Source: Calditrichota bacterium | GTDB lineage: Bacteria > Calditrichota > Calditrichia > Calditrichales > J004 | Length of the DNA: 64,000 nucleotides | Reading direction: 5' to 3' | Assembly: GCA_024277115.1 (NCBI GenBank) | Contig: JAJRVW010000222.1 | Span: 27,738 to 91,737, forward strand | In this document: positions 5,560 through 46,760 of the stretch, piece by piece | Numbering within the stretch: position 1 is the first letter of the stretch | How the letters are laid out: every line of letters begins with the position of its first letter | Translations under genes and position numbers: made by a program | Notes under the pieces: generated by a model | What the model was told of the DNA's origin: nothing | Databases searched by the model: none | Seen by the model: only the letters and a program-made list of their open reading frames with translations

Positions 5560-8166
5560 ATGACATCCAATAAAATTCGTCAACAATTTATAGATTTCTT
5601 TAAGGATAAGCAACATACGTTTGTACCAAGCGCTTCCGTTGTCCCGTTGGACGACCCGACCCTTCTTTTTACCAATGCGGGGATGAACCAGTTTAAAGAT
5701 GTTTTTTTGGCCAAAGGGGAACGCAGTTATAAACGCGCTGCAAATTCCCAAAAGTGTATTAGGGTAAGCGGGAAACACAACGACCTGGAAGAAGTCGGGC
5801 ACGATACTTATCACCACACCTTTTTTGAAATGCTTGGCAATTGGTCCTTTGGGGATTATTACAAAAAAGAGGCCATCGCCTGGGCATGGGAACTTTTGAC
5901 CGAAGTTTGGAAATTACCCAAAGAGCGGCTTTATGCGACTGTTTTTGGCGGTGATGAAGGTGATGGGCTTGAAGCGGACACCGAAGCAGAAAAGCTATGG
6001 CAGGAAATGACAGATATTGACCACTCACATATTTTGCGTTGCAGCAAGGCCGACAATTTTTGGGAGATGGGCGCGACCGGGCCATGCGGGCCGTGTTCTG
6101 AAATCCATATTGACCTAACCCCGGACTTATCCGGAGGTAAACTGGTTAATGCCGGCGTACCGGAAGTGATTGAAATATGGAACCTGGTTTTTATCCAATA
6201 TAACCGTGATAAAAGTGGCAAGCTTTCCGATCTGCCGGCCAAACATGTGGATACAGGCGCCGGTTTTGAGCGTATTGTGGCCGTTATGCAAAATAAAAAC
6301 TCTAATTATGACACCGATGTGTTTATGCCCATCCTCGATGAAATTGGCAAACTGGTAGGCGAGGCCTATGAAAAAACAAAAGAACAAATTGCTTACCGGG
6401 TCATCGCCGATCATATCCGTATGCTTACTTTCTCTATCGCCGATGGTGGCCTACCCTCCAACGAAGGCCGTGGTTATGTGATGCGCCGTATATTAAGGCG
6501 CGCTGCGCGTTATGGGCGTAAACTTAATTTGCATGAGCCTTTTCTGTACAAACTTGTACCGGGACTGGTTGCACACATGGGCGATGCCTACCCGGAATTA
6601 AAAGAGCGCATGGATCATGTTATCAAAGTAATCCGTGCCGAAGAAGAACATTTTAACCGCACCCTGGACCGCGGGCTGGAAATTTTTGCCAAAATTGTAA
6701 ATCAGCTGGAACAAAAAAATGAAAAGACCATCCCGGGAGTTGACGTATTTAAACTTTATGATACCTTTGGTTTTCCGGTCGATTTAACAGCCCTGATGGC
6801 TGAAGAAAAAAATCTTGCCATAGATTTAGAAGGCTTTGAAAAAGAAATGAACAGTCAGCGCGAACGGGCACGGGCTGCCGCAAAATTTACGTCCCAAACC
6901 GTAAGCACCGATGCCTGGGTTGTGATGAACGCAGGTGATGATTCTGAATTCGTCGGTTACGAATATACTGAAGCCGACTCAAAAATCAGCCGCTATTACC
7001 AGGACGAGAATCATGTAAAGGTGCGCCTGATTAAAACACCTTTTTATGCAGAGTCCGGCGGGCAGGTTGGCGATAAAGGAACCATTGAGGGCGATGGGTT
7101 TAAACTAAATGTAATTGATACCCAGAAAGAAAATGATGCGATTATCCACATCTGTACACTTGATGGTGAATTTAATCCAAAATCAGATAAAATATTTGCG
7201 CGGGTTAATGAATCGGAACGCAGGCGTACACTTAAAAACCACACAGCTACGCACCTGCTGCAAGCCGCTTTACAACAAGTGCTGGGCGATCATGTTCACC
7301 AGTCCGGGTCTTTGGTAGAACCCGACCGGCTACGATTCGATTTTACCCATTTTGAAAAAGTAACAAATACAGAATTAACCGAGATCGAGCGCATAGTAAA
7401 CGAACAAATCCAAAAAGATACACACCTGGAAATAAGCCTTAAAAATATTGACGAGGCAAAGGCCGAAGGGGCCATGGCCTTATTTGGCGAAAAATACGGT
7501 GACATAGTACGAACTGTAAAAGTAGGTGATTACAGCCTGGAATTATGTGGTGGTACACATGTAAAAGGAACCGGGGAGATCGGCGCTTTTATAATCACTA
7601 CCGAAGAAGGTATTGCCGCCGGTGTGCGCCGCATCGAAGCGATAACCGGGCCTAAAGCCGTGGAATATTTCCAGAACGCCCGTAAGCGTGTTGGGGAAAT
7701 AAGCCAGCTGACAAACAGTCCCGAAAACAGTATTGCTGAAAAAGTGAAATCTTTGATAGAAGATAAAAAGGCGTTGGAAAAAGAGTTGGCACAAGCCAAA
7801 GCGGCACAATTAAGCGGCAACCTGGATGGCATCATCGATTCAGCTAAATCCATAAACGGCACGCAGGTAATCCTGCATAAGTTGGAAAATGTGGACATGA
7901 AAGCGCTTAAAGATTTGGGCGATAAAATCCGTGAAAAAGTAAAAAACACAGTCGGGCTAATTGCCTCGGTCAACGCGGACAAGCTGGCCTTTGTTGCCTT
8001 TGTAAGCGACGACCTTCTCAAAAAATATAAGGCGGGCGACCTGGTTCGTGAAGTTGCTAAAACAGCTGGCGGTGGTGGTGGCGGTAAACCACACATGGCC
8101 ACAGCAGGGGGAAAAGATGTAAGTAAATTGGATGCGGCGCTGACTCGCTTTAAAGAGCTGATTTAA
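5560..8166 (+). CDS. alaS: Alanine--tRNA ligase
   Basis: 868 aa, full length. Class II core (FTNAGMNQFK, KCIRVSGKHNDLEEVG), editing-domain HxxxH (HTATHLLQAAL) and C-terminal GGGGG(K) DHHA1-like tail. Confidence 0.97.
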   Translation: MTSNKIRQQFIDFFKDKQHTFVPSASVVPLDDPTLLFTNAGMNQFKDVFLAKGERSYKRAANSQKCIRVSGKHNDLEEVGHDTYHHTFFEMLGNWSFGDYYKKEAIAWAWELLTEVWKLPKERLYATVFGGDEGDGLEADTEAEKLWQEMTDIDHSHILRCSKADNFWEMGATGPCGPCSEIHIDLTPDLSGGKLVNAGVPEVIEIWNLVFIQYNRDKSGKLSDLPAKHVDTGAGFERIVAVMQNKNSNYDTDVFMPILDEIGKLVGEAYEKTKEQIAYRVIADHIRMLTFSIADGGLPSNEGRGYVMRRILRRAARYGRKLNLHEPFLYKLVPGLVAHMGDAYPELKERMDHVIKVIRAEEEHFNRTLDRGLEIFAKIVNQLEQKNEKTIPGVDVFKLYDTFGFPVDLTALMAEEKNLAIDLEGFEKEMNSQRERARAAAKFTSQTVSTDAWVVMNAGDDSEFVGYEYTEADSKISRYYQDENHVKVRLIKTPFYAESGGQVGDKGTIEGDGFKLNVIDTQKENDAIIHICTLDGEFNPKSDKIFARVNESERRRTLKNHTATHLLQAALQQVLGDHVHQSGSLVEPDRLRFDFTHFEKVTNTELTEIERIVNEQIQKDTHLEISLKNIDEAKAEGAMALFGEKYGDIVRTVKVGDYSLELCGGTHVKGTGEIGAFIITTEEGIAAGVRRIEAITGPKAVEYFQNARKRVGEISQLTNSPENSIAEKVKSLIEDKKALEKELAQAKAAQLSGNLDGIIDSAKSINGTQVILHKLENVDMKALKDLGDKIREKVKNTVGLIASVNADKLAFVAFVSDDLLKKYKAGDLVREVAKTAGGGGGGKPHMATAGGKDVSKLDAALTRFKELI

Positions 8167-8200: not shown

Positions 8201-8471
8201 ACCCGTTGTGCGAATTAGAATAGCATATTTGTTGATAATAGTTGTAAAACTTAAAAAGCAGGTCGTTCCTATGGAGCTTTTGCCAACATAGAAATTCATT
8301 TTTTCTACAAATAGGTCCTTCCTATCGGAATTTTTTATTTCGTCCTGTAAGGACGTTCTATTTGTAGTACAAAAATCAAAATAGTTTTCAAGAAGCTCCA
8401 TCGGAGCGGCCTATCGTAAAAATTTAGTTGAAATTATTTTGTTTCTATTTTTTCTAATTCGTACAACGGGT
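8201..8471. repeat. MITE-like ~270-bp palindromic element with 20-bp terminal inverted repeats
   Basis: acccgttgtgcgaattagaa (8201..8220) matches the reverse complement of ttctaattcgtacaacgggt (8452..8471) at 19/20. The interior is itself a nested imperfect palindrome: ctacaaatag...ctatttgtag, and ggtcgttcctatggagc vs gctccatcggagcggcc. It has no convincing coding capacity. Confidence 0.6.
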
Positions 8472-8496: not shown

Positions 8497-9069
8497 ATGA
8501 AAACCAGTAGATTAGAAGCTTTCAGCGATGGTGTACTCGCAATTATTATCACCATTATGGTGCTGGAACTAAAAGTGCCGGAGGGTGATAATTTATATGC
8601 GTTGCTTCACAAAACGCCTGTATTTATAAGTTATCTCATAAGTTTTATTTATATTGGGATTTACTGGAACAACCACCATCATCTTTTCCAAATTACGGAA
8701 AAAGTAAACGGGCGTATCCTTTGGGCCAACCTGCACCTGCTTTTTTGGCTCTCCCTTATCCCTTTTGCCACAGCCTGGATAGGCGAGAACCATCATGCAT
8801 CCGCACCTTACACACTTTACGGAATTATCTTATTAATGTGTGGCTTTGCATTTTATATCCTGCTTGGTTCTATCTTAAAACATCACGAAAAAGATTTTGC
8901 CCTGAGAGAATCGATTGGAAAAGGCATCAAAGATAAGCTTTCCCTGCTCATTTATCTTATTGGGATTATCCTTTCTTTTTATTCCTCCCTTGCAGCGACG
9001 GCATGCTATATCGGCGTAGCTATAATATGGATTATACCCGATAAAAGAGTCGAAAAAAATTATAAATAA
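8497..9069 (+). CDS. TMEM175/DUF1211 family membrane protein (putative K+ channel)
   Basis: N-terminal RLEAFSDGVLAIIITIMVLEL signature and six predicted hydrophobic helices. Confidence 0.8.
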   Translation: MKTSRLEAFSDGVLAIIITIMVLELKVPEGDNLYALLHKTPVFISYLISFIYIGIYWNNHHHLFQITEKVNGRILWANLHLLFWLSLIPFATAWIGENHHASAPYTLYGIILLMCGFAFYILLGSILKHHEKDFALRESIGKGIKDKLSLLIYLIGIILSFYSSLAATACYIGVAIIWIIPDKRVEKNYK

Positions 9070-12020: not shown

Positions 12021-12034
12021 AACATTCCGCCTTT

Positions 12035-12070
12035 CCGGGTAGAGACGCGATTAATCGCGTCTCTACCCGG
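12035..12070. repeat. Perfect 36-bp GC-rich palindrome (possible terminator hairpin without U-tract)
   Basis: ccgggtagagacgcgattaatcgcgtctctacccgg equals its own reverse complement. It lies between the stop of 12176..14551 and the start of the lipoprotein gene. Confidence 0.6.
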
Positions 12071-23740: not shown

Positions 23741-26215
23741 TTATTTTATATTAAGGGGAAAACTTAAAATAAAAACGGTCCCTTCGCCCAATTTGCTTTC
23801 AACCTCAATTGTCCCTTTGTGCGCCTTTACTACATGGGCAACCAAACTTAACCCCAACCCCACACCACCGGAACTTTGGACACTTTCATCCTGCGAACGA
23901 TAAAATGTATCAAAGATGTGCTGCTGATCCTCGTTCGAAATTCCAATGCCCATATCGGCAATTTTAATAATCACGTGGCCATCTTTCAATTCTGTAGATA
24001 TGTGTATTTCTTTTTGTTTATCAGAATACTTAATCGAGTTCGTCAGAACATTTATAAAACCCGAACAAAGCGCATCTTCGTCGGCAGATAAAATTATATC
24101 TTTTTCTAAAAAGTCGGTTTTAACTCTAAATTGACGTTGCTTAAACTGATAATCCATTAGGTGCAGGACATCTTTTAGCACCTTGTTTAAACTGATTTCC
24201 CTAAAATTATAAGCCGTGTTTCCTCGTTCAATCTTTGAAAAATCCAATACGTTTTTTATTAAACGCGAGAGTCGTGCACTTTCGCCTTCAATAATTTTTA
24301 AATATTCTTTTTGTTTTTCTTTTGGGATATTTTCTTTTTCAGCCAATAACTCGGCAAACATTTTGATGGAAGTTAGCGGCGATTGCAAATCATGCGAAAC
24401 ACCGGAGACGAAATAGGATTTTAGACGGTTGAGCTCGTTTAACCTTTCTGTTTCAAGATTTTTTAACAGAAGCTGTTTTTGAAGCTCTGTTCTTTGCAAG
24501 GCCAAACCAAGTTGAATTCCAATTGTTTTTAAAAGGTCTATATCTTCGAGCGTAAATTTTTGCCCGGACTTTTTACGGCCCAAAATCAACATCCCGATTA
24601 TTTCTGCCGTTGGGGATTTTAACGGGACTATCAAACATTTACCGGCTATCTTTAAATTTTTCTTATCCAGCGCTTCAAACGGAATGCCTGATTCCAACAT
24701 ATTAAAATAACTTAAAACAGCCTTTGATGAGTTTTGCGCATAAACAACCAAATCGTCGATTATCTCCCCGGGAAATCGGCCAAAATTTTTACTTGCTGAT
24801 ATTTCCCACACACCTTGTTCGTTTTTTATATAAAATCCGGAAAATTTCACCTGCAATAAATCGTCTATCCGGCGGATTGTCATTTGTACGATGCTTTCTT
24901 TATCCAGGCTTGTGTTTAATTCCTGTGTAAATTTTTGTTGTGCAAGACGATAATTATAACGCACCCTGAAAAATTTCTGATCAACCATTTTTTGCAGAAA
25001 ACGGCGTAGGGGTTCAAATATCAACGGTGTTAGGATGGCCGCCACTACCGTTGTAACCAGCGATGACTCTACTGTAATAAAACCAATAAACAAAACAGAA
25101 AGTCCAACCAGCGCGGCATACATCACCAAAAGGATTAATGCTGTGAAAAAATAAACCGAGCTTCTACGGAAAATATGGTCAATATCGAAAACATGGTATT
25201 TCACAATCGCGATACTAAAAGTAACCGGGACAATTAACATTACAAGAACAATTGTAAACTCTGGAACGATTAAATCAACCGAGAAAACCTGAGGTAGCTG
25301 CCACAAAAAAACAAACGCCGGCGGCCCAATCGCCAGACCAAAAACGACCCAGCGTATCTGCCTGCGCTCCGATTCCTCCTGCGCATGAATTGAAGAATGA
25401 AAAATATTTGCCACGCCAAAGGTCATAGCCACGGCAAAATAGAGGCGGTTTAAATTAAATGCGGTTAGAAGGTGGTTAAACCAATCAAGCGAAACAGTGG
25501 AAGAAGCCATCAGGAACGTACCGCAAAGCGTAATGGCCAATGCCGTCGAGAAACCATATAAAAGATAGCTTAGCTTTTTTAAATTTTGCCATTTATAACG
25601 CGGGAAAACAAAACTTAGATGGATAAATAACGAAGGCACAAAAGCATAGGCAATAAAGAAAAACAATCGTGTAAACTGCCCGATACTAAACTCCCCGGCA
25701 GAATATGTTCCCCATGTTGAGGTGATTATAATTGCCGTCCCAACAGAAGCCCAATGCCAAACATTGGCCATTACAAGTTCCGGGCGTTTGTAGATGACAA
25801 AAACCCCAAAAATAAAAAAGATCAGCCCTACAATGGTTTGGGCGGTGTTATCGATCCAATTATAGTAAAAAGGAAGTTCGATTTTTAAATGGATTTGCTG
25901 CCCATGACGAAGGACTAAAAAGGAAACAATATCACCTTCTGAATAGGAATCCAGGACAAATTCAATCTCTTCTTTGGAGGAAATAGCATGGCCTGCAATG
26001 GCAATAAGTTTGTCCCCCGTTGCAAAATATTTGGTTAGTCCGGGCGAGATAATTTTATTTACATACAACCCGTCTTTTTCCACATTAAAAGAAATATGTT
26101 TTTCGGGGCTGAGGCCGGCCTTTTGTATAATCCGGGTGAGCCCAAGGATGCAAATAATAAGGAGTAAAAAATCTACAACAAATATACGGGAAAGTTTTTT
26201 CCTTAAGTCGTCCAT
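23741..26215 (-). CDS. Sensor histidine kinase (PDZ-like, multi-TM, GAF-like, HisKA, HATPase_c)
   Basis: N-terminal PDZ-like segment (GDKLIAIAGHAISSKEEIEFVL). About 8 hydrophobic helices. H-box YFVSGVSHDLQSPLTSI. ATPase boxes NVLTNSIKYS, DMGIGIS, GGVGLGLSLV. Confidence 0.85.
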   Translation of the reverse strand: MDDLRKKLSRIFVVDFLLLIICILGLTRIIQKAGLSPEKHISFNVEKDGLYVNKIISPGLTKYFATGDKLIAIAGHAISSKEEIEFVLDSYSEGDIVSFLVLRHGQQIHLKIELPFYYNWIDNTAQTIVGLIFFIFGVFVIYKRPELVMANVWHWASVGTAIIITSTWGTYSAGEFSIGQFTRLFFFIAYAFVPSLFIHLSFVFPRYKWQNLKKLSYLLYGFSTALAITLCGTFLMASSTVSLDWFNHLLTAFNLNRLYFAVAMTFGVANIFHSSIHAQEESERRQIRWVVFGLAIGPPAFVFLWQLPQVFSVDLIVPEFTIVLVMLIVPVTFSIAIVKYHVFDIDHIFRRSSVYFFTALILLVMYAALVGLSVLFIGFITVESSLVTTVVAAILTPLIFEPLRRFLQKMVDQKFFRVRYNYRLAQQKFTQELNTSLDKESIVQMTIRRIDDLLQVKFSGFYIKNEQGVWEISASKNFGRFPGEIIDDLVVYAQNSSKAVLSYFNMLESGIPFEALDKKNLKIAGKCLIVPLKSPTAEIIGMLILGRKKSGQKFTLEDIDLLKTIGIQLGLALQRTELQKQLLLKNLETERLNELNRLKSYFVSGVSHDLQSPLTSIKMFAELLAEKENIPKEKQKEYLKIIEGESARLSRLIKNVLDFSKIERGNTAYNFREISLNKVLKDVLHLMDYQFKQRQFRVKTDFLEKDIILSADEDALCSGFINVLTNSIKYSDKQKEIHISTELKDGHVIIKIADMGIGISNEDQQHIFDTFYRSQDESVQSSGGVGLGLSLVAHVVKAHKGTIEVESKLGEGTVFILSFPLNIK

Positions 26216-26270
26216 ACCAGAAATGTAAGGATTTATATCGTTTTTGGATAGTAAAAAATTATATGGTTAA

Positions 26271-26989
26271 ATGGCGGGTAGGAGCTGACTCCTGTTAGCA
26301 AATATTAATTTAGACCATAACCTGTTGAAGGATGGTTTGCGCACTTGGGAAAGTGCCTCTACCTTCAGGCCAGGCACAGTAATACATATCAAAACGTACT
26401 TTGGAAACCACACTTACCGGCATCTGCATATTTTTCCCGGCAGATGATTCCTTCCGCATCTCGGATTCAACAAAAAAAGGTAGGAGCTGACTCCTGTCAG
26501 CGAATATTAATTTAGACCATAACCTGCGGAAGGATGATTTGCGCACTTGGGAAAGTGCTTCTACCTTCAGGCCAGGCACAGTAATACATATCAAAACGTA
26601 CTTTGGAAACCACGCCTACCGGCATCTGCATATTTTTCCCGGCAGATGATTCCTTCCGCCTATCGGATTCAACAAAAAAGGTAGGCGCTGACTCCTGTCA
26701 GCGAATATTAAATTTATATCATAACCTGCTGAAGGATGGTTTGCGCACTTAGGAAAGTGCTCCTACCTTCAGGCCAGGCGCTGTAATACATTTCAAAACG
26801 TACTTTGGAAACCACGCTTGCCGGCAGATGATTCCTTCCGCCTATCGGATTCAACAAAAAAGGTAGGAGCTGACTCCTGTCAGCGAATATTAATTTAGAC
26901 CATAACCTGCTGAAGGATGGTTTGCGCGCTTAGGAAAGTGCTCCTGCATTATAGATTCTCTCGCTTTGGAAAGCGCTCCTACCCGCCAT
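26271..26989. repeat. Tandem array of ~200-bp non-coding units (about 3.6 copies) bracketed by a 15-bp inverted repeat
   Basis: Units begin with ggtagg at 26277, 26479, 26680 and 26862 (periods 202, 201, 182). atggcgggtaggagc (26271..26285) is the exact reverse complement of gctcctacccgccat (26975..26989). Conserved hairpins occur in every unit. Confidence 0.9.
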
Positions 26990-26996
26990 CGGCAAG

Positions 26997-28457
26997 TTAT
27001 TCCCAGGTGGTGCCTTCGCGTGTATCTTTTAGGGTTATGCCCAATTCTGTAAGCTTATTTCGTATTTCATCGGCCAGGGCAAAGTTTTTCTCCGCGCGTA
27101 GTTGTGCCCGTAAACTGATCAATAATTCCATTACACCGTCCATTTTATCAGAGGAAGTTTCCTCTTTCTCAAAACTCTCCGGCAATAAACCCAGCACATC
27201 ATCTAAAAGGGATTTTAAAACGGATGTCAGTTTTTCCAGCGTTGGGACTGATAACTTATCAGGCTCGCGTTCAATCCAGGAAGCTGTTTTTTTGATAAAA
27301 TCAAATGTGGCCGCAATAGCGCGCGGTGTGTTAAAATCATCATCCATCGCCTCTTGAAAAGCAGCTTCATAAGCTTCAATCTCTTTTTCAAAAGCGTCGT
27401 CTGTTTTTTCGGATAAAGCTTTGGAAGTAAAAACCTTTTCCACAACCGTATATATTTTTTGCAACCCTTTTTCTGCCGCTTGCAGTGCTGTTTCGCTAAA
27501 ATCGAGCGTGGCGCGGTAATGACTGGTTAAAATAAAAAATCGAATAGCCAGTGGCGGATAGCTCTCTAAGGCCGCTTTTAAGGTTTTAAAATTCCCCAGC
27601 GATTTGCCCATTTTCACACCATCGACATTGACCATATTATTGTGCATCCAGTACTTCACAAAAGGTTTGCCATTGGCCGCCTCACTTTGGGCAATTTCCG
27701 ATTCATGATGCGGGAATTTGTTTTCCATACCGCCACCGTGGATATCGAAAGTCTCGCCCAAATATTTGTTGGACATGCAGGAGCATTCCAAATGCCAGCC
27801 GGGATAGCCTTTGCCCCAGGGACTGTTCCAGCGCATCAGATGGGTTGGATCGGCTTTTTTCCAGAGGGCAAAATCCGCCGCGTTGCGTTTATCGCTTTTT
27901 ACCTCAACACGGTGCCCTTCACGCATTTCATCCACCGAGCGGCCAGATAGCTTGCCATAATCCTTAAACTTTTCCACCTCAAAATAAACATTGCCATCGG
28001 CCTCGTAGGCATACCCTTTTTCCATCAAAGTTTGGATCATCTCCACTTGCTCCGGGATATGACCGGATGCCCGCGGTGAAATATCCGGGCGCAACACATT
28101 TAAAACATCCATGTCCTCAAAATAACTTCGGGTATAATTTTCAACCACTTCCATCGGCTCCAATCGCTCCAACCGGGCCTGCTCGGCAATTTTATCTTCG
28201 CCCTCGTCCGCGTCACTTTGCAGATGGCCCACATCGGTAATATTTTGAACATAGCGCACCTTATACCCCAAATGCCTGAAATAACGCACGATCACATCAA
28301 AGCTGATGTAACTTTTGGCATGGCCCAAATGCGAATCGCCATAAACCGTTGGCCCGCATACATAAATGCCTACAAAACCCGGGTTGATGGGAACAAATTC
28401 TTCTTTTTTACGAGAGAGCGTGTTGTATAAAACCAGATTGTTTTCTTTTAAGCCCAT
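26997..28457 (-). CDS. cysS: Cysteine--tRNA ligase
   Basis: Class I HIGH (GDSHLGHA) and KMSKS (KMGKSLGN) motifs. Full length, 486 aa. Confidence 0.97.
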
Positions 28458-46207: not shown

Positions 46208-46760
46208 TTCCCCCTTAACGAAGGGGGTTAGGGGGTTGTCCATTACTACTAGAAAGTCCATTTATTAGGGGCTTATCCTACTCCTCAGAGCTTCAATCTT
46301 ATCAGCTATAACTTGGAGTGTACCATCTATTTGTTTTATTACATAATGCCCGTCAAAACGGATTATTTCTAATCCAATCTCCCTCAAGATACTTTCTCTC
46401 TGCAAATCATATTTTTGTTTTCCATCGTGGGTAATTCCATCTATTTCAATTACCAGATGTAATTTGCTACAATAAAAATCAACTATATAATTATCAATGG
46501 GTTTTTGCCTTGTAAACTTACACCCAAGCAGCTGACTGTTTTTAAGATGTTTCCAAAGTAACCGTTCGCCGAATGTAGCATTCTTTCTTAGCTCTTTGGC
46601 ACGTTCTTTTAGTTTTGTATTATAGTAGATTTTCAATTGATGAATGAATTATTATTTATTTAAATACTTCTCAATTTCAAATTTAATTTTAAAATTGACC
46701 TTTCAAGATACTCCTTTACCGTCGTCTGACAACCCCCTAGCCCCCTTTGTTAAGGGGGAA
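46208..46760. mobile_element. DUF559 endonuclease cassette bounded by 33-bp inverted repeats
   Basis: ttcccccttaacgaagggggttagggggttgtc (46208..46240) matches the reverse complement of gacaaccccctagccccctttgttaagggggaa (46728..46760) at 31/33. Each arm contains its own ccccctt/aaggggg hairpin. The interior looks AT-rich relative to the flanks. Confidence 0.5.
46265..46636 (-). CDS. DUF559 (Vsr-like) endonuclease domain protein
   Basis: ERLLWKHLKNSQLLGCKFTRQKPIDNYIVDFYC...LVIEIDGITH...D..RESILREIGLEIIRF is the DUF559 pattern. Confidence 0.8.
   Translation of the reverse strand: MKIYYNTKLKERAKELRKNATFGERLLWKHLKNSQLLGCKFTRQKPIDNYIVDFYCSKLHLVIEIDGITHDGKQKYDLQRESILREIGLEIIRFDGHYVIKQIDGTLQVIADKIEALRSRISP

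Follow-up and report, generated by a model that had tools for sequence, protein, structure and literature searches.

Repetitive extragenic palindromes (REPs) and bacterial interspersed mosaic elements (BIMEs) have long been known from Pseudomonas and E. coli. In enterobacteria the stabilisation by REPs against 3'-exonucleases and their role in termination are established, and for BIMEs an action of the REP-associated tyrosine transposase (RAYT) on the arms has been proposed. Binding of DNA gyrase, IHF or Pol I is a further character of BIMEs. Here we describe an array of short palindromes in 64,000 nucleotides from a Calditrichota bacterium (contig JAJRVW010000222.1, positions 27,738 to 91,737; this whole 64-kb stretch is called the window below). 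The array lies between cysS and the gene of a PDZ-GAF histidine kinase. The best reading is an ordinary, already known class of repeat, in preference to a riboswitch or a new family of RNA genes. Its probable identity is a BIME-like cluster of GTAG-headed REP-type palindromes which was amplified locally.

The repeats of classes GTAG-1 and GTAG-2 have an unpaired dinucleotide between the GTAG tag and the stem-loop, with a conserved 3-bp motif opposite (Di Nocera et al. 2013, PMC3733652). GTAG REPs are commonly found as dimers, often heterodimers, with GTAG on the outside and 20-100 bp between the partners. REPs are located mostly downstream of genes, between unidirectional or convergent open reading frames (ORFs), and G-T pairs are common in their stems. 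The GTAG REPs often exceed 100 copies per genome, and some families are clustered at few loci (PMC3733652). Among the RAYT-associated REPs of Table 1 in Nunvar et al. (2010, PMC2817692) are Pent2 (GTAGGAGCCAGCTTGCTGGCGAA), Pent1 (TGTAGGAGCGGATTCATCCGCGAT) and Xcam (GTAGGAGCGCGCTCGCGCGCGA). In the same paper BIMEs are presented as head-to-tail modules, each made of inverted REPs and two different spacers, with large differences in length between strains. The Caldithrix genome paper gives a single REP-like motif, an 18-nt palindrome that differs from the arms described here.

The cysS-kinase intergenic region spans positions 26216-26996 of the window and is a BIME-like mosaic of three full modules of about 200 bp and one truncated module on the cysS side. 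CysS, whose sequence assigns the window to Calditrichota, is encoded on the minus strand at 26997-28457, with ddl and glnS upstream of it. On the other side of the array, also on the minus strand, a kinase with PDZ, GAF, HisKA and HATPase domains (23741-26215) is followed by an OmpR-type regulator. Tandem Repeats Finder detects one strong tandem array in the window, at 26277-26942, with a period of 202, 3.4 copies, 90% matches, 4% indels and a score of 1030. The units start with GGTAGG at 26277, 26479, 26680 and 26862, which gives unit lengths of 202, 201 and 182. An alignment of the four units has a mean column identity of 83%; exactly 20 nt adjoining CCGG are deleted from unit 3, and unit 4 departs from the other units after about 85 nt. 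Direct reading confirms a perfect 15-nt inverted repeat around the array, atggcgggtaggagc at 26271-26285 and its exact reverse complement at 26975-26989. By our estimate, about 0.06 perfect 15-bp inverted repeats within 1 kb are expected per 64 kb. Ahead of units 2-4 the plus strand has runs of six or seven A, which on the minus strand read as a T7 run (26472-26478) and its T6 equivalents (26674-26679 and 26856-26861).

In these respects the original prediction, which had been made from the letters of the same stretch, agrees with the present results: it had reported the tandem array with its coordinates, the three unit lengths, the 20-nt gap next to ccgg in unit 3, the divergence of the fourth unit, the enclosing 15-bp inverted repeat and the minus-strand T-runs at the unit ends. 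It had also stated that every unit keeps the same hairpins. This is correct for the first two hairpins, although the first one contains GTTAGC, with a G-T pair, in unit 1. It does not apply to the hairpin CATCTGC...GCAGATG, which is restricted to units 1 and 2, as unit 3 lost the 5' arm through the 20-nt deletion and unit 4 has no such segment. A coding reading of the ORFs 26310-26594 and 26917-27357 was set aside on the grounds of repeat periods that are not multiples of 3 and of the 20 nt missing from unit 3. How many copies the array has exactly is uncertain, the window being a short-read assembly. The array itself is not an assembly artefact, because the independent assembly of a sister strain (L029) also has at least two units.

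The basic piece of the array is an arm of 22-25 nt, in which the GTAG head is followed by an unpaired GA, a stem of 6 bp opening with GC, a TCCN loop and a tail of the GAA type. Three arms can be distinguished: REP-a, on the plus strand, has the structure GTAG-GA-GCTGAC-TCCT-GTCAGC-GAA; REP-b, on the minus strand, GTAG-GA-GCACTT-TCCC-AAGTGC-G(A/C)A; and REP-c, also on the minus strand and located 14 nt past the cysS stop, GTAGGAG(C/T)GCTT-TCCA-AAGC(G/A). When the window was searched with the arm motif GTAGGAGCNNNNTCCNNNNNGC, that is GTAGGAGC-N4-TCCN-N4-GC, allowing at most 2 mismatches, 9 matches were found against 0.36 expected, and all nine of them are inside the array, where they alternate in orientation. 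The GTAG tag is present on all 9 arms of the window, reading GCAG in one degenerate copy, and it is also present in the related loci L001, L029 and L013 discussed below. At least four arms with different stems have the GTAGGAG head, the TCCN loop and the GAA/GAT tail in common.

The four REP-a arms are located on the plus strand at 26277-26299 (unit 1, GGTAGGAGCTGACTCCTGTTAGC, with the G-T pair in its stem), 26479-26501 (unit 2, GTAG-GA-GCTGAC-TCCT-GTCAGC followed by GAA), 26680-26702 (unit 3, with the head GGTAGGCGC) and 26862-26884 (unit 4). The REP-b arms are found on the minus strand at 26341-26362 (GTAGAGGCACTTTCCCAAGTGC, which forms a head-outward inverted dimer with the REP-a of unit 1), 26543-26564 (GTAGAAGCACTTTCCCAAGTGC), 26745-26766 (GTAGGAGCACTTTCCTAAGTGC) and 26926-26947 (GCAGGAGCACTTTCCTAAGCGC) in units 1 to 4, respectively, and it is the last of these whose head has degenerated to GCAG. 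The single REP-c arm, GTAGGAGCGCTTTCCAAAGCGA, occupies 26961-26982 on the minus strand and is orthologous to L001 7476-7497; between the window and L001 its stem shows one compensatory change of C-G to T-A.

Each hairpin-rich domain of about 88 nt is thus built of two inverted palindromes with their heads outward and about 40 nt apart. The heads of the dimer pair with each other, GGTAGGAGC with GCTCCTACC (GGUAGGA/UCCUACC), and this pairing, which is possible on either strand, closes a branched domain around both arm hairpins. The minimum free energies calculated for the domains range from -24 to -45 kcal/mol. The spacers of about 110 nt between the domains are themselves composed of REP remains on the minus strand, namely a degenerate REP-c and a degenerate fragment of REP-a. 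The former reads GGTAGGCGTGGTTTCCAAAGTAC and is present in the long spacer of unit 1 as GGTAAGTGTGGTTTCCAAAGTAC (26396-26418, with equivalents at 26598-26620 and 26800-26822). The latter is GGAAGGAATCATCTGCC in the window (26439-26455, with equivalents at 26641-26657 and 26823-26839) and is intact as GAAGGAGTCAGCTCC in L029. The minus-strand T-runs described above are located directly past the inverted dimer on the gene-sense strand and resemble terminators. Read in the gene sense, the order of the pieces is c, then three times the series b, inverted a, T6-7, a fragment and degenerate c. One more b and inverted a follow, and after them come a conserved ATAATTTTTTACTA block and the start of the kinase.

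Outside the repeats, the minus strand has the block CCATATAATTTTTTACTATCC at 26247-26267, located between the last arm and the start codon of the kinase. This block is kept in the window, in L001 (7650-7668) and in L029 (about 368-392), contains TATAAT or CATAAT and may represent the promoter of the kinase operon.

It is important to compare this anatomy with the described systems. With the GTAG-1 REPs of Pseudomonas, Xanthomonas, Thauera and Thioalkalivibrio the array has in common the head GTAGGAGC, the unpaired GA, which stands as a dinucleotide between the GTAG tag and the stem-loop, the short stem opened by GC and the GAA/GAT tail as the 3-bp motif opposite. The arms are of similar size, 22-25 nt, and are extragenic, downstream of coding regions and between co-directional genes, which is the placement of the GTAG super-family. 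The inverted dimers with GTAG on the outside, the spacers of 20-100 bp, the heterodimeric pairing of a with b and the G-T pair in a stem are also features of the GTAG-1 class.

The arrangement of the modules resembles the BIME-2 and atypical BIMEs of E. coli and the BIMEs of Stenotrophomonas and Xanthomonas, in which REPs of opposite orientation and two different spacers form modules joined head to tail. The number of modules, and with it the length, differs between strains here also, and modified or degenerate REPs are found within the cluster. However, the module of the array is about 200 bp long and is made of four REP-derived pieces (b, inverted a, a fragment and degenerate c) and not of Y-s-Z2-l, and each module has a T6-7 run past the dimer. 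As in the REPINs of Bertels and Rainey (2011, PMC3116915), the inverted REPs and their spacer fold into one large hairpin, in which the heads enclose both arm hairpins, and presence or absence varies between close relatives. REPINs, in contrast, are many near-identical dispersed copies inherited vertically with a single RAYT, while here one arm is common to two phyla. There is also some likeness to intrinsic terminators: at three unit ends a GC-containing stem in the gene sense, either an alternative hairpin AGGAG-UCAG-CUCCU or the closing helix of the dimer with 7-9 bp, is followed by U6-7. Intrinsic terminators differ from it in that the array domain is branched and 88 nt long, is repeated in variable number, and has no adjacent T-run in the kinase-side copy and in the L001 copy.

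The comparison of strains gives further information about the element. In a JGI contig (L001) with the same gene order and a CysS of 96% identity, the gap between cysS and the kinase is only 236 bp and contains one domain of about 88 nt, together with a short piece of GGGTAGGAG and hairpin directly past the cysS stop. A contig from another strain of the same sample (L029), with a kinase of 96% identity, has at least two full units and ends inside the array. With flanking proteins that are 96% identical, L001 has 1 module, L029 at least 2 and the window about 4. More distant relatives are without the element. No copy was found downstream of cysS at 84% CysS identity (L002 and L003), where other genes follow, or upstream of the kinase orthologues at 63-65% identity (L031 and L032), which have plain AT-rich regions and different neighbours there although the order kinase-regulator-PAP2 is kept. 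A profile of the unit, searched with nhmmer against all the loci gathered, matches only the window, L001, L029 and the L013 contig family. Because the matches are limited in this way, the element is young, variable in copy number between strains and bound neither to cysS nor to the kinase, so that a conserved riboswitch, leader or small RNA can be ruled out.

Two additional observations concern these relatives. Downstream of cysS, L002 (about 7640-7840) and L003 (about 7625-7785) have a different non-coding block, conserved between both, which reads TGGCATAAAAAATGCA…GAGTTAGGTCGTTGGTTGAGAGGG…CCCTCTC and then a T-run. Its closing helix and U-tract suggest a small RNA or a complex terminator; Rfam has no match to this block. 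In the window, a perfect palindrome CCGGGTAGAGACGCGA-TTAA-TCGCGTCTCTACCCGG is located at 12031-12070 between two minus-strand ORFs. The same GTAG-headed hairpin is found directly past the glnS stop in L001 (4890-4913), while the orthologous glnS-ddl gap of the window is without it. This second GTAG-headed palindrome is thus at different loci in the window and in L001.

A second context for the array's arm was found when a metagenome collection was scanned with the 19-nt core of REP-a. There were 12 matches, and only one of them, in the Schekmanbacteria-like contig L013, extends past the seed. The element of this contig reads AAAAAATGTAGGAGCTGACTCCTGTCAGCGAAT…GCCATCTGGAGATGGCTCCTAC, and REP-a recurs in it together with its A/T run over 31 nt at 97% identity. 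Its partner is a different arm of the same format, GTAGGAGCCATCTCCAGATGGCGAT, or GTAG-GA-[GCCATC-TCCA-GATGGC]-GAT. The element is located about 90 nt downstream of a gene of the sigma-70 family and upstream of pepA, all on one strand, and here too the T-run is in the gene sense. Proteins of Candidatus Schekmanbacteria are the nearest matches to the sigma factor (63% identity), and the synteny MerR-sigma-PepA is also present in a named Schekmanbacteria assembly. Schekmanbacteria is a phylum distinct from Calditrichota. The element is not at the sigma-pepA site in relatives of 86% and 63% identity, which have the same synteny; the contig of a 70% relative stops about 100 nt past the gene. A Schekmanbacteria locus of 21 kb has no such arm.

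At both loci, cysS-kinase in the window, L001 and L029 and sigma-pepA in L013, the genes are co-directional and the element is downstream of the first one. Two phyla, different gene contexts and gaps in close relatives of both fit a mobile repeat and not a vertically inherited regulator. As a separate observation, the sigma-pepA gap of the Schekmanbacteria-like contig L024 (4250-4480), which is without the GTAGGAGC dimer, contains several other strong palindromes, CCCCGTCTTTAGACGGGG, CATTCCTGCCTGCCGGCAGGCAGGCAGGAATC and CCACGCCTTTAGGCGGGG, and looks like a hotspot of palindromic insertion.

Several points weigh against the assignment to REPs and BIMEs. Neither the 64-kb window nor about 70 kb from related Calditrichota loci contain a further copy, and the array is thus at one locus in 64 kb, while GTAG-1 REPs number tens to hundreds per genome. 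The 19-nt core, scanned against 185,579 species-representative genomes, gave 8 single matches in unrelated taxa and no real copy; one of the 8 was checked and is in GC-rich coding sequence, and all 8 are consistent with chance. The exact core occurs in only one real metagenome contig, L013, and viral contigs, plasmids and phages have no match to either arm or to the array. No RAYT-like motif (Y..NP plus HUH) was seen in a six-frame regular-expression scan of the window and the loci, which is a weak test covering less than 2% of a genome. The stems of the array (GCTGAC, GCACTT) are richer in AT than those of the proteobacterial REPs and the loops are longer (4 nt, TCCN, compared with the usual 2-3 nt), and the phylum of the host, Calditrichota, is outside those surveyed in PMC3733652 and PMC2817692. 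The likeness of the heads to those of Pseudomonas REPs could come in part from the need for the heads to pair. A T-run is not found directly past the dimer in L001 or at the kinase-proximal end of the array, and the transcription, termination and stabilisation proposed below are all inferred.

The format of the arms, however, is identical to that of published REPs, and since some GTAG families are clustered at few loci, the low dispersal is not disqualifying. The identification as a locally amplified, BIME-like cluster of GTAG-headed REP-type palindromes is held with reasonable confidence, which is limited mainly by the low dispersal. The original prediction had offered as its third explanation the local expansion of a genome-wide element of the REP/BIME kind. 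The REP/BIME part of this is supported by the GTAG-headed inverted pairs, the head-to-tail modules and their strain-variable number. As to the genome-wide part, the only other context found is the one in another phylum.

The restriction to one locus in 64 kb, the lack of a match in representative genomes and of a RAYT motif could also be explained by a purely local tandem duplication. In this explanation slippage or unequal crossing-over multiplied a complex terminator or 3'-untranslated structure of cysS, which has no kinship to mobile REPs and bears its GTAG heads by coincidence. The terminator-like sites in the gene sense at the unit ends and the single-module ancestral state of L001 also speak for it. 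However, another phylum has the same arm, with head and tail, past a different gene, and the relatives of that organism are without it. The sharing of head, loop and tail by at least four arms with different stems, the format identical to published REPs and the position of the second GTAG palindrome at non-orthologous sites in two genomes related at 96% also weigh against duplication only. We regard this explanation as unlikely.

A different proposal arises because the same arm with its T-run is located downstream of housekeeping genes in two unrelated phyla and is missing from close relatives in both. The element might be a horizontally mobile 'terminator cassette', consisting of the head-outward REP dimer and the U-tract, or the units might be expressed as structured antisense small RNAs (sRNAs) from the plus strand. 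Taken together these variants appear quite unlikely, and the second, to which the wobble-pair asymmetry described below hints, is more remote than the cassette.

The behaviour of the array at the level of RNA bears on the remaining explanations. A search by consensus match only gave three terminator-like sites, compared with 1.4 expected in shuffled sequences; each of the three is located at a unit end and on the minus (gene-sense) strand. This is compatible with the terminator-like character that the original prediction had seen on the minus strand, and with the supposed role of REPs. A promoter scan with the sigma-70 consensus only gave one weak site against 2.2 expected and no enrichment per unit. 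Rfam 15 at the gathering threshold gave 0 matches in the window, L001, L002, L003 and L013, and a permissive scan (E<10) of 26100-27100 returned only noise (FopS, VIS1, U6, glmS and EBER2, with E of 3.5-8.2). The original prediction had likewise matched the array to no known riboswitch or RNA family. Compared with shuffles, the plus-strand domains fold with z of -1.8 to -2.7 and the whole array with z of about -5 on both strands. The seven Calditrichota copies, in which helices P2 and P4 are nearly invariant, show no double compensatory change and are too alike for covariation. Counted by cell, the plus strand has 14 G-U wobbles and 9 mismatches and the minus strand 4 and 19; as independent events this asymmetry is only about 7 to 4 and is not decisive. 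Evidence for the gene-sense strand, in contrast, comes from the three terminator-like sites, from the T-runs and from the location of the array past co-directional genes.

Three other RNA candidates were considered and rejected. ARAGORN finds no tRNA- or tmRNA-like cloverleaf in the window. A CsrA/RsmA sponge with GGA in its loops has no Csr or Rsm match in Rfam, and both strands are rich in GGA from the AGGAG/CUCCU heads. A self-cleaving ribozyme at the three-way junction is without a hammerhead, twister or pistol core and without a match in Rfam.

Tandem sRNA genes had been another suggestion of the original prediction. Each unit of about 200 nt would then be an independent transcript with a four-helix fold, possibly from the plus strand and antisense to the flanking genes. 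The folding that is more stable than in shuffles, the balance of wobbles and mismatches that leans to the plus strand, and one hairpin in L013 with a wholly different stem and a similar loop are in agreement with it. However, equal conservation of the hairpins is predicted for REPs recognised as DNA, the asymmetry is reduced to about 7 to 4 events and the seven copies have no double compensatory change. In addition, no Rfam family rises beyond noise at E<10, the single weak promoter-like site is below the 2.2 expected, conservation is confined to strains of one species-level clade and does not go past the strain level, and the copies vary from 1 to 4 among strains. Such genes are very unlikely. 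Highly improbable is the further suggestion that the array is a repeated cis-regulatory leader or attenuator of the kinase/response regulator operon: it immediately precedes the kinase, in the same strand sense, and its terminator-like hairpins could attenuate read-through, but the orthologues at 63-65% identity keep the order kinase-regulator-PAP2 with no element upstream, the closest strain manages with a single module, the same arm is downstream of an unrelated gene in another phylum, and the block conserved beside the kinase start lies outside the repeats.

Returning to the BIME-like cluster, the ancestral state is the one kept in L001, a single module with arm c, arm b and inverted arm a. 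In the lineage of the window this module, along with degenerate arm fragments, has been multiplied in head-to-tail order and now numbers about 4 copies. The amplification would have come about through slippage or unequal recombination between arms in direct repeat, or else through a RAYT that uses the arms as its substrate. The array would be co-transcribed as the 3' end of the ddl-cysS message. To judge from the anatomy and from the established roles of REPs, each dimer with its U6-7 tract may serve as a terminator and as a barrier against 3'-exonucleases. The cysS message would be ended and stabilised in this way and the downstream kinase operon insulated, which would start from its own conserved promoter-like block at 26247-26267.

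Some other repeats were noticed in the course of this analysis. In connection with the second GTAG-headed palindrome at 12031-12070, the 24-nt pattern GTAGAGACGCGATTNATCGCGTCT, with 23 specified bases, was found in 50 IMG/VR contigs (L033-L082), from which 115 copies were extracted, up to 10 of them per 12 kb. The flanks of these copies are not conserved and the GC content ranges from 37 to 60%; regular arrays of 448 bp are found in L071, and some copies lie within long ORFs (L042). At the protein level the contigs show no similarity to the window, and a literature search did not retrieve the exact sequence. The pattern looks like a widespread, undescribed GTAG-tagged repeat family. At 8260-8412 of the window, between the plus-strand ORFs 5560-8166 and 8497-9069, nested inverted repeats AGGTCGTTCCTATGGAGCTT/AAGCTCCATCGGAGCGGCCT enclose CTACAAATAGGTCCTTCCTATCGGA/TCCTGTAAGGACGTTCTATTTGTAG; these four copies of a motif of about 17 nt in two orientations may be another REP-like doublet. 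The 33-nt inverted repeat TTCCCCCTTAACGAAGGGGGTTAGGGGGTTGTC, 94% complementary, is located at 46208-46240 and 46728-46760 with 487 nt between the arms and could represent the ends of a small non-autonomous mobile element.

The result removes a candidate "new structured RNA" and assigns a concrete identity in its place. The array, with a copy number that varies from strain to strain, is a strain marker, and it appears to break short-read assemblies, because the L029 contig ends inside it. For the organism, it probably sets the end of the cysS transcript and hence the independence of kinase operon expression. That L013 has a nearly identical arm hints, in a small but concrete way, at a movement of such repeats, or of the enzymes spreading them, from phylum to phylum. 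If the cassette explanation were true, a small non-coding element or a REP-RAYT system would cross phyla and be kept for ending or stabilising transcripts. The GTAG-headed class of REPs is not described for the phylum Calditrichota in PMC3733652, in PMC2817692 or in the Caldithrix genome paper. If confirmed genome-wide, the present finding would extend the Pseudomonas-type GTAG-headed REPs and BIME-like clusters to this deep-branching phylum.

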